A stretch of DNA of 64,000 bases from Escherichia coli (GTDB lineage Bacteria; Pseudomonadota; Gammaproteobacteria; Enterobacterales; Enterobacteriaceae): assembly GCF_050320075.1 (NCBI RefSeq), contig NZ_CP190018.1. The stretch is one strand, 5' to 3'. Within the stretch, counting starts at the first letter, position 1. The number at the start of each line of letters is the position of its first letter. The notes beneath the pieces are model-generated. The model worked only from the letters and a program-made list of their open reading frames with translations. It was not told where the DNA came from and did no database searches. Of the stretch, positions 39,487 to 40,518 are shown one piece after another. Made by a program: the position numbers and the translations under genes.

Positions 39487-40518
39487 GTTGATGTCATTTC
39501 TGGTGTGAGAACCTTAAGGAAACAACATGTTGGGTGGAGCGGAAAATCCAAATGGTGACCGTCTTATTATCGCTGGCGCTGACACCTGAGCGATCACCTT
39601 TAATATGGTAGCAATTACACTGAATTACTTACAGATTCGTTATAACGAACCTCTGTACATAATTATGAAACAGATTTGTATTTACATAAAACATGGATAT
39701 TTTTAATTTAGGTTTATTACTATTATTATACTCACTCCCTTTTTGATATAATCTCTATTGTTATTTACTTCCTGTCTTTACTCACTCTCTGTTCCTGTTT
39801 TCAGTGAAATAATAATTTATTTTAATTTTATCCATCATGAGCTGTATTTGCTTAACAATGATTGTTTGCCTGATATGTTTTAACTATTCTGGTGAACATC
39901 AATTCTCTGTCATCACTGATTAACTGAATGCTTACGCTTTGATAAGGTATCCATGATTCCGTCATGTTTAACAGCGCAGAATAAACAATGAAATTAACAG
40001 AGTGAATTCCTGATTATGTTTGTTTCGGGTTGTATTGTTTAAGATGCAGAGTAAAAATCATGCCAGTGGTATTTTTTACTCTGGTAATGTGTGCGGTTAA
40101 CGTTCATGTCCTTAAGAACAGATTGGATGAGGGCGTATAAGTTTATTGCGTTGGCCTTGTTCACGTTTTTTTAGAACCACTGAGAGCAAGTTTGTAGTTT
40201 ATGATTGATTGGTCGAAATATATTTCTTAACCTTCTGGTTGTGGGTTTTTATCGCGTGTTTTGCAGTATTTCGTGATGTTTATTGATTCTGTATTTTATT
40301 CGCTCCTCGTTTATCTCATCTCTTTAGCTAATACCATCAGATAATCCATTTATTTCTGCACAACGCTACGTGTCGTTAATAACCGACGTATCCATTCTGT
40401 TACAGCATGCCTGATAAATACCGTCTGTAAGTTATTACCGTTTTAGATCTGATTATGAGCGAAAGCATTAATTCGTTTACAGCACTTAAAACGTCATTAA
40501 CTTTCAGGAGTCATCAGC

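Follow-up and report, generated by a model that had tools for sequence, protein, structure and literature searches.

Islands that are very common in E. coli have YagK/YfjJ genes among their core genes; to our knowledge, the encoded proteins have no known function. In the literature searched, yfjJ, yagK and inovirus Gp2 appear as annotations only, with neither a function nor a cis-site attached to them, and no nicking or replication activity is reported for any YagK/YfjJ protein. The prototypes lie in two islands of K-12, CP4-57 (yfjI-yfjJ) and CP4-6 (yagL-yagK). In both modules a DUF3987 yfjI-like gene is followed by the YagK/YfjJ-family gene, with an AlpA-type regulator nearby, and the gap upstream of the latter is 152 nt for yfjI-yfjJ and 271 nt for yagL-yagK.

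Non-coding DNA of several hundred bases precedes gene II in the Ff phages (M13/f1/fd); this intergenic region is made up of conserved hairpins, which constitute the packaging signal and the minus- and plus-strand origins. In mobilisable elements oriT lies directly 5′ of the relaxase gene. In IncFII (tap/repA), IncI-alpha (repY/repZ) and IncB (repB/repA) plasmids, translation of the rep gene is coupled to that of a leader peptide. The termini of rudiviral genomes carry AATTTAGG repeats. Long AT-rich intergenic regions are also already known from acquired islands.

The DNA analysed here is a stretch of 64,000 nt from E. coli (the window) which carries two YagK/YfjJ-type genes, paralog 1 and paralog 2, each preceded by a long leader (leader 1 and leader 2, respectively). 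An earlier note on this DNA drew attention to leader 2, and it is this leader, its borders, its conservation and its possible function that are described below.

The locus and its borders

The window is 100% identical to the chromosome of E. coli W2-5 (NZ_CP032989.1; window coordinate = record coordinate - 4193240). It leads from iadA, uxu, fim and nan genes into a decayed, IS-riddled genomic island containing cbtA/yeeU-type genes, a YeeP-like GTPase gene, the two YagK/YfjJ-type genes and an AlpA-type regulator, as well as an H-NS-family gene (38360-38710) and a ProQ/FinO pseudogene. Leader 2 is flanked by an istA pseudogene (IS21-family, minus strand) and by the gene for a protein of 188 amino acids (Table 1).

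Table 1. Features of leader 2 and of the gene downstream, in window coordinates.
Feature	Position	Strand	Remarks
IS21-family terminal inverted repeat tip	39560-39585	-	TGTCAG terminus readable; istA pseudogene at 39131-39486, also in locus L004
IS256-family (Mutator-type) 3′ end	39586-~39685	+	Last transposase codons L-S-D-H-L-stop at 39587-39605; terminal non-coding end; palindrome 39623-39664
AT-rich motif, TTAATTTAGGTTTATTACTATTATTA (consensus TTAATTTAGGTTWATTAMTATWATTA)	39703-39728	+	Deeply conserved; -10-like TATWAT inside
Hypervariable pyrimidine-rich segment	39729-39788	+	Degenerate direct repeats TACTCACTCyCT and CTrTCTTTAC; site of the window’s loss of at least 126 nt
Leader body, AT-rich, T-rich, largely dispensable	39789-40386	+	No conserved ORF; diversity mostly at or above the neutral benchmark
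Constrained promoter-proximal/5′-UTR block	40387-40518	+	Low diversity; in every deletion variant
Candidate upstream ORF of 23 codons, MSESINSFTALKTSLTFRSHQHA	40455-40526	+	Stop overlapping the main start (AUGCCUAA); speculative
YagK/YfjJ-domain gene, 188 aa, HUH-type Rep-like nuclease fold	40519-41085	+	HUH motif FHAHAVF; YxxK motif YLAK

The earlier note had described leader 2 as an ORF-free, AT-rich stretch of about 950 bp. Such a stretch does exist: the GC content of 39560-40518 is 0.341, compared to 0.471 for the whole window, and ranges from 0.29 to 0.37 along the leader, with a sense strand rich in T (T 0.40, A 0.27). No ORF in any of the six frames is longer than 41 amino acids; for dinucleotide shuffles the maximum was 67 ± 19, and 5% of them were as short. 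Among ~500 E. coli genomes holding most of the leader, no RefSeq feature lies under it. The first ~125 nt, however, are IS ends. When 39487-40518 was used as a query, the first ~100 nt matched IS21/IS ends in thousands of replicons, both plasmids and chromosomes. In three metagenome loci (L022, L136 and L127) the segment after the IS21 tip runs upstream into the C-terminus of a PF00872 transposase (...GDRLSDHL-stop). Insertion sequence DNA, namely the IS21 end and the IS256-family 3′ end, was recognised in 39560-~39685 only.

Alleles free of IS insertions (L002, L015) align from ~39685 onwards only, and native leader 2 is therefore taken as ~39685-40518, a length of 834 nt. In IS-free islands of four E. 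coli genomes, the gap between the yfjI-like (DUF3987) gene and the 188-aa gene measures ~1.54-1.63 kb. Compared to most alleles, that of the window is shorter by at least 126 nt at 39787/39788. The native leader is always colinear with the gene; some 500 complete E. coli genomes contain it, with identities of 81-96% and a median of one copy each. Phage records gave no match to leader 2, and its matches on plasmids were to those of Escherichia only.

The downstream gene and its family

The 188-aa protein has the features of the HUH endonuclease superfamily, with an HUH motif, the tyrosine of a YxxK motif and a Rep-type alpha/beta fold. The earlier note had treated its gene and the one behind leader 1 as two paralogs of one gene family. 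In a multiple alignment of both paralogs, their relatives and K-12 YfjJ, the HUH and YxxK motifs are kept in both proteins and the residues R33, D35, W75, E78, H86-x-H88 and Y156-xx-K159 are invariant. These catalytic-type residues indicate that the two proteins are remote members of one HUH-type superfamily. A closer relationship is not borne out: paralogs 1 and 2 are 22% identical in that alignment, pairwise BLASTP detects no similarity between them, and paralog 2 scores below the Pfam gathering thresholds for both PF11726 and PF23343. Paralog 1 is tied to replication-initiation families by PHROGs; a profile search of the PDB gave no match.

Relatives of paralog 2 with ~50% identity are found in Citrobacter, Enterobacter, Salmonella diarizonae and Mixta. 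In these organisms the gene follows an unrelated gene of 197 amino acids, from which it is separated by a gap of ~200 nt with normal GC content.

Leader 1 and leader 2 share no element

According to the earlier note, the architecture of leader 2 is the same as that found at 33.1-34.6 kb, in front of paralog 1. The resemblance is real insofar as both leaders are long, AT-rich, T-rich on the sense strand and poor in ORFs, but it does not extend to the sequence. When the two leaders were aligned, as the note had proposed, blastn with a word size of 7 detected nothing in common between 33096-35307 and 39487-41085 (best E = 0.12). This is part of what the note had said would refute its reading. The distal motif of leader 2 was not found in leader 1 or elsewhere in the window. 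The word TCTTTAC had been considered as common to both leaders; it was dropped, as copies of it are spread over the AT-rich regions of the window.

Leader 1 (33508-34575) is itself syntenic non-coding DNA, present at 73-100% identity in ~1880 E. coli genomes, where as many as 7 copies can occur together. Conservation is lower than in its gene (81-88% versus 89-99.7%), with near-invariance confined to the last ~50 nt. Leader 1 contains a triple 23-nt repeat at 33637-33719, and no significant fold is predicted for its start region (z = -1.55). Both leaders thus combine a variable body with a conserved gene-proximal end, which suggests a common evolutionary pattern and not a common element. Moreover, the gaps are short in the K-12 prototypes and in the ~50%-identical relatives, and a long leader is therefore no trait of the family.

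A functional leader shared upstream of both genes is not supported. The earlier note had taken the presence of two long leaders as a sign of a functional element rather than random decay; this reading fails in that no element is shared and the middle of leader 2 is unconstrained, and it holds in that leader 2 contains two short constrained elements and that each leader is syntenic in hundreds to thousands of E. coli genomes. The repeated architecture in front of two ‘paralogs’ accordingly reflects no shared element, and the ORF-free ‘leader’ consists mostly of IS ends and an unconstrained AT-rich spacer.

The body of leader 2 is variable and largely expendable

For the 47 E. coli-class alleles whose gene is intact, nucleotide diversity was compared to that of the four-fold degenerate sites of the 188-aa gene (π = 0.089). 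Diversity is highest in the pyrimidine-rich segment that follows the motif (π = 0.231 for 39729-39788, higher than four-fold sites, p = 2e-6). It remains above the benchmark in 39789-40265 (π = 0.148, p = 0.025) and is not different from it in 40266-40386 (π = 0.076). In the pyrimidine-rich segment the number of repeats also differs between alleles, one of which (L003) has 3-4 tandem TCCACCTTC units. Deletions occur naturally alongside an intact gene, with losses of 28-35 nt within 39738-39787, at least 126 nt at 39787/8, 202 nt at 39878-40076 and 330 nt at 40065-40392. The only parts retained by all alleles of the sample are the motif, 39788-39877 and 40393-40518.

Searches for hidden content in this part of the leader were negative. 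Each of the 13 ORFs of at least 20 amino acids in 39586-40300 is disrupted in at least 7 of 10 alleles, and the only conserved ORFs of the leader are two within the nearly invariant proximal block. With tblastn, no remnant of the relatives’ upstream 197-aa gene was detected in leader 2. An Rfam cmscan of 32500-42000 at a permissive E-value returned two chance-level matches only, both outside the leader, and the RNA fold of the whole leader is no better than those of shuffles (z = -0.79). TRF identified no tandem array, and the direct repeats are limited to degenerate 15-nt repeats in two copies. An iteron-type origin was rejected, since regular conserved repeats are lacking and no other part of the leader is as variable or as prone to indels as the repeat segment. 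A scan for sigma-70 promoters yielded 4 sites compared to 4.0 expected; the one plausible candidate, an extended -10 site at 39852-39879, was discarded as a promoter because it is not conserved among alleles.

A distal motif conserved between genera

The 26-nt motif occurs once in the window, where none is expected by chance. In relatives it contains a near-palindrome, TTAATTA-ATA-TAATTAA. All relatives identified from protein similarity alone have the motif once per locus, 5′ of the gene and on the same strand. A scan of metagenomes with the motif recovered 120 loci, two of which match by chance and belong to an unrelated AT-rich genome, and one of which (L097) has a gene reduced to a deleted remnant; in the remaining loci with enough downstream DNA, the gene lies downstream in the same orientation. 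The motif is absent from viral contigs.

Two classes of locus can be distinguished by the distance from the motif to the ATG. In the short-leader class, comprising the Citrobacter, Enterobacter, Salmonella and Mixta relatives, this distance is 144-153 nt (~146), while in the E. coli class it is 641-1056 nt, with 816 nt in the allele of the window. It follows that in E. coli 0.5-0.9 kb of extra AT-rich DNA lies between motif and gene. The fixed position of ~146 nt from the start codon in the sister lineages suggests that the motif is the ancestral cis-element of this gene subfamily.

The diversity of the motif is low (π = 0.020 in the 47 alleles, a set partly selected through the motif), and in a separate alignment chosen without reference to it the motif is again near-invariant and its flanks are not. 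The -10-like hexamer varies only between TATAAT and TATTAT. No -35 element is recognisable for it, and the motif was not called by the promoter scan. In short-leader relatives an inverted repeat, GGGGAGTG...CACTCCC, surrounds the motif; neither the E. coli lineage nor Salmonella diarizonae has this repeat, and its variation elsewhere is not of a compensatory kind. As single-stranded DNA, 39660-39800 folds no more stably than shuffles do (z = +0.74). The motif is most likely a protein-binding or promoter-type site.

A constrained block around the start of translation

In the last part of the leader (40387-40518) diversity falls to 0.027, below the value for four-fold sites (Mann-Whitney p = 2e-4; 47 alleles). 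An irregular hairpin of ~115 nt is predicted for 40405-40522, in which the Shine-Dalgarno sequence AGGAG (40506-40510) and the AUG (40519) are paired with 40405-40427. The fold of 40380-40540 has a minimum free energy of -33.3 kcal/mol (z = -3.29), and 1 of 200 shuffles was as stable. The natural deletion of 330 nt stops at 40392, just 5′ of the foot of the hairpin.

The consensus fold of 19 distinct alleles comprises 42 pairs, with 99% of cells paired; none of the 42 shows a compensatory change. Polymorphisms are not significantly depleted in the stems (Fisher p = 0.17), and shuffle and slide controls were uninformative, the block being almost invariant. Thus, support for the hairpin comes from thermodynamic stability and sequence conservation only, and its conservation may be mere conservation of the primary sequence of a promoter or ribosome-binding site. 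In short-leader relatives a small hairpin does show compensatory changes, which makes an RNA leader plausible for the subfamily.

The upstream ORF overlaps the main gene by 8 nt and is intact in 10 of 10 alleles, albeit inside a nearly invariant block. The differences within it are 2 non-synonymous and 2 synonymous, it has no Shine-Dalgarno sequence, and a 12-nt deletion lies just 5′ of it in 8 of 53 alleles. No homologue was found in the short-leader class: an ORF of the same length is present at 4 of 6 loci, where it is dissimilar and also without a Shine-Dalgarno sequence, and it is broken in the rest. The upstream ORF is a speculative lead and not a finding.

Discussion

Starting from the anatomy, conservation pattern, deletion tolerance and protein fold established above, leader 2 is best explained as a composite of IS debris, an unconstrained xenogeneic AT-rich spacer, probably coated by H-NS, and two short cis-elements, a reading to which we give a probability of roughly 60%. 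In this model, two insertion sequences, one of the IS21 family and one of the IS256 family, would have landed in an older intergenic region and left ~125 nt of their ends. The remaining 834 nt would represent a remnant, truncated at its distal end and deleted internally, of a spacer of ~1.55 kb that in intact islands separates the yfjI-like (DUF3987) gene from the small gene for an HUH-type Rep-like protein. Most of this spacer would have no sequence-specific function, having drifted at a neutral or faster rate, gained and lost repeats and proved expendable over hundreds of bases. Its 66% A+T, in an acquired island, would make it DNA of the kind that H-NS-family proteins coat and silence; coating of leader 2 is suggested by composition and context. 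The distal motif would be the first functional element, with a role as an ancestral cis-element, and the last ~130 nt the second, with a stable hairpin around the translation-initiation region. By masking the start of translation, the hairpin would probably hold expression of the Rep-like protein low until it is opened.

Most alleles keep ~0.95-1.05 kb of leader, although useless DNA in bacteria would be expected to shrink through deletion bias, a counterpoint to the spacer model. The length of the spacer or its AT content could itself be under selection. Likewise, recombination between old alleles, and not an absence of constraint, may account for a diversity in excess of that at four-fold sites.

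Alternatively, the leader could be the cis-site of the HUH protein, with the motif as its nick or recognition site, in a rolling-circle origin or an oriT-like arrangement, and the pyrimidine-rich repeats as binding iterons. The downstream protein has FHAHAVF, YLAK and a Rep-like fold, paralog 1 has its PHROGs link to replication initiation, and the motif, always 5′ of the gene on the same strand, is the sole part of the distal leader conserved between lineages. It is flanked by GGGGAGTG...CACTCCC in short-leader relatives and directly followed by direct repeats in variable number. This flanking repeat, however, is missing in the E. coli lineage and Salmonella diarizonae, without compensatory change where it varies, and the DNA around the motif shows no excess of folding (z = +0.74 for 39660-39800). 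Iterons bound by a protein that is 96-99% conserved would be expected to be conserved, whereas the repeats are the least conserved part of the leader (π 0.231) and are partly deleted. The island, furthermore, is a decayed, IS-riddled remnant, and the literature searched reports no nicking or replication activity for YagK/YfjJ proteins. On balance this explanation appears unlikely. It can be extended to a broader proposal, more doubtful still, in which the motif would be the DNA recognition or nick site of an uncharacterised family of small HUH nucleases (YagK/YfjJ-type, ‘inovirus Gp2-like’). Motif and gene would then form a minimal ori/Rep or oriT/relaxase cassette for the replication or mobilisation of P4-like/CP4-type enterobacterial islands after excision, and the E. 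coli spacer, inserted between site and gene, would be an H-NS-dependent silencer holding the cassette inactive. Since the gene encodes an HUH Rep-like protein, the nick-site or recognition-site reading of the motif is nevertheless the most interesting one.

Two further explanations concern the transcript and the history of the region. The motif could be a promoter, with TATWAT as its -10 element, for a 5′ untranslated RNA leader of ~0.8 kb that would act on the gene post-transcriptionally and in which translation of the upstream ORF (40455-40526) would open the hairpin that sequesters the ribosome-binding site. The near-fixed TATAAT/TATTAT hexamer, the T-rich sense strand (T 0.40, A 0.27 throughout), the predicted hairpin over the Shine-Dalgarno sequence and AUG (z = -3.29), kept in all alleles, the intact upstream ORF with its 8-nt overlap and the compensatory small hairpin of the short-leader relatives are consistent with this idea. 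It sits poorly with a motif that has no -35 element and escapes the promoter scan, with a leader that folds like shuffles and has an unconstrained, deletable middle, and with a hairpin devoid of covariation. The upstream ORF has neither a Shine-Dalgarno sequence nor a homologue in relatives, its non-synonymous differences equal the synonymous ones and its context is deleted in 8 of 53 alleles; in addition, ~785 nt of U-rich untranslated RNA would be a strong target for Rho. Such an RNA leader is improbable, about as much so as the cis-site of an HUH protein. Pure decay, in which the stretch would consist of the remains of destroyed genes or mobile elements and function would be limited to the immediate ribosome-binding site of the gene, is the least likely of the explanations considered and is not supported. 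It gains from a neighbourhood full of pseudogenes and IS fragments, from the part of the stretch that is literally IS debris and from a middle that evolves at or above the neutral rate with many indels; mutation bias, moreover, makes unconstrained E. coli DNA AT-rich. Yet no annotated gene lies under the leader in any allele among ~500 E. coli genomes, tblastn with the relatives’ upstream gene was negative, and the leader is without a match in phage records and is found on no plasmids other than those of Escherichia. Decay also leaves unexplained a distal motif conserved across genera at ~50% protein identity, and conservation of the proximal 130 nt exceeds that of synonymous sites.

The composite reading therefore remains the preferred one. 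As such the finding matters little. Its useful by-products are a conserved 26-nt motif of one YagK/YfjJ subfamily across Enterobacterales and a constrained translation-initiation region of 130 nt, two small elements that are undescribed in the literature searched. As genes of the YagK/YfjJ family are frequent in E. coli islands and lack an assigned function, the motif offers a ready substrate for tests of a site-specific nickase.

Comparison with known systems

The order of genes at this locus, a DUF3987 yfjI-like gene and then a YagK/YfjJ-family gene with an AlpA-type regulator nearby, is that of the CP4-57 and CP4-6 modules of K-12. Unlike here, where the gap is 0.8-1.5 kb, the K-12 genes are separated by 152 and 271 nt, and the K-12 proteins resemble paralog 1 and not paralog 2 (17% identity to paralog 2 in the alignment).

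Leader 2 shares with the leader-peptide-coupled rep genes of IncFII, IncI-alpha and IncB plasmids a short ORF, here a candidate only, that ends over the start of a replication-type gene and a ribosome-binding site within a stable stem, here a predicted one. In contrast to those systems, no antisense RNA gene, promoter, terminator or pseudoknot partner was found in leader 2, and its upstream ORF has no Shine-Dalgarno sequence or coding-type substitution pattern. The arrangement proposed for a nick site of the HUH protein is like that of an oriT directly 5′ of a relaxase gene in mobilisable elements. The intergenic region of Ff phages is similar in that several hundred bases of non-coding DNA precede the gene, which at this locus is one that Pfam and NCBI relate to inovirus gpII/Rep (PF23343, ‘inovirus Gp2 family’). 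Unlike that region of conserved hairpins, leader 2 shows no excess folding (z = -0.79 for RNA of the whole leader, +0.74 for DNA at the motif) and is mostly unconserved, and paralog 2 remains below the gathering threshold of Pfam.

Leader 2 also resembles H-NS-silenced xenogeneic regions, a likeness of composition and context only. Its GC content of 0.29-0.37 contrasts with ~0.5 for the region, and it lies in an acquired, IS-rich island. Like those regions it is long and poorly conserved, with conservation limited to short cis-elements, and the island carries an H-NS-family gene of its own at 38360-38710.

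Composition and repeats of the leaders

The AT-rich DNA upstream of the first YagK/YfjJ-type gene (leader 1, 33096–34575) and of the 188-aa Rep-like gene (leader 2, 39685–40518) has a strong excess of T on the sense strand of the gene that it precedes, with AT skew minima of -0.36 and -0.30, respectively; in both, T-richness exceeds that of neighbouring coding regions. An unannotated AT-rich gap of ~1.45 kb also separates fimB from nanC, and long gaps of this kind are therefore not special to YfjJ-type genes in the window. Where the conserved part of leader 1 begins, a 23-nt repeat (TACACGTATTTTTACTAAGCATT and variants) occurs three times, at spacings of 36 and 24 nt; judged from its sequence, this array looks iteron- or operator-like.

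A cluster of IS fragments (36567–39685) lies upstream of leader 2 and includes an H-NS-family gene whose product retains an intact C-terminal DNA-binding domain. At the last IS junction, the outward-facing CTGACA of an IS21 terminus and, 16 nt downstream, the TAATAT of an IS256-family end form a putative hybrid sigma-70-like site, recognised by consensus match alone, directed into leader 2.

Features of the window and of locus L010 (Salmonella enterica subsp. diarizonae)
Feature	Coordinates	Strand	Remark
Window
AT-rich gap	17749–19203		between fimB and nanC
23-nt repeats, three copies	33637–33719		leader 1
IS256-family piece	36567–37141
Transposase pseudogene, further one	37274–38049
H-NS-family gene	38360–38710		116 aa; within IS cluster
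IS256-family piece	38979–39107
IS21 istA fragment	39131–39585
Sigma-70-like hybrid site	39579–39606	+	putative
IS256-family piece	39586–~39685
Upstream ORF	40455–40526	+	23 codons
Third YagK/YfjJ-like ORF	42490–43038	+	182 aa
Locus L010
First pair, ORF	3195–3788		197 aa; adjoins YfjJ-like gene (ATG at 3986)
Second pair, presumed YfjJ-like ORF	5530–6126		198 aa
Second pair, homologue of 197-aa ORF	6162–6824		220 aa; adjoins 198-aa ORF

Related genes and short leaders

In some genomes the third YagK/YfjJ-like ORF bears the annotation ‘YagK/YfjJ domain-containing’ or ‘inovirus-type Gp2 protein’. No HUH motif is present in it, and neither Pfam nor PHROGs gives a match; it is thus probably a degenerate copy. 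In relatives, YfjJ-like genes are paired with a gene for a ~200-aa protein of unassigned family, an arrangement seen twice in L010 (3195–6824), where the second pair is presumed; the window holds no homologue of this partner.

Between the conserved 26-nt motif and the ATG, short-leader relatives (loci L007–L012 and metagenome loci) carry a small stem-loop (CCUUCCUGAAGG / CCCUCCUGAGGG) in which compensatory changes occur. In short-leader loci CACUCCC, directly 3' of the motif, may also pair over a long range with GGGAG in codons 8–10 of the gene, a putative interaction showing some double changes.

The start of the Rep-like gene

Within the hairpin predicted to sequester the ribosome-binding site of the Rep-like gene lies an upstream ORF, a weak candidate for translation, whose end (AUGCCUAA) overlaps the gene's start codon. 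The layout recalls the leader-peptide coupling of plasmid rep genes.
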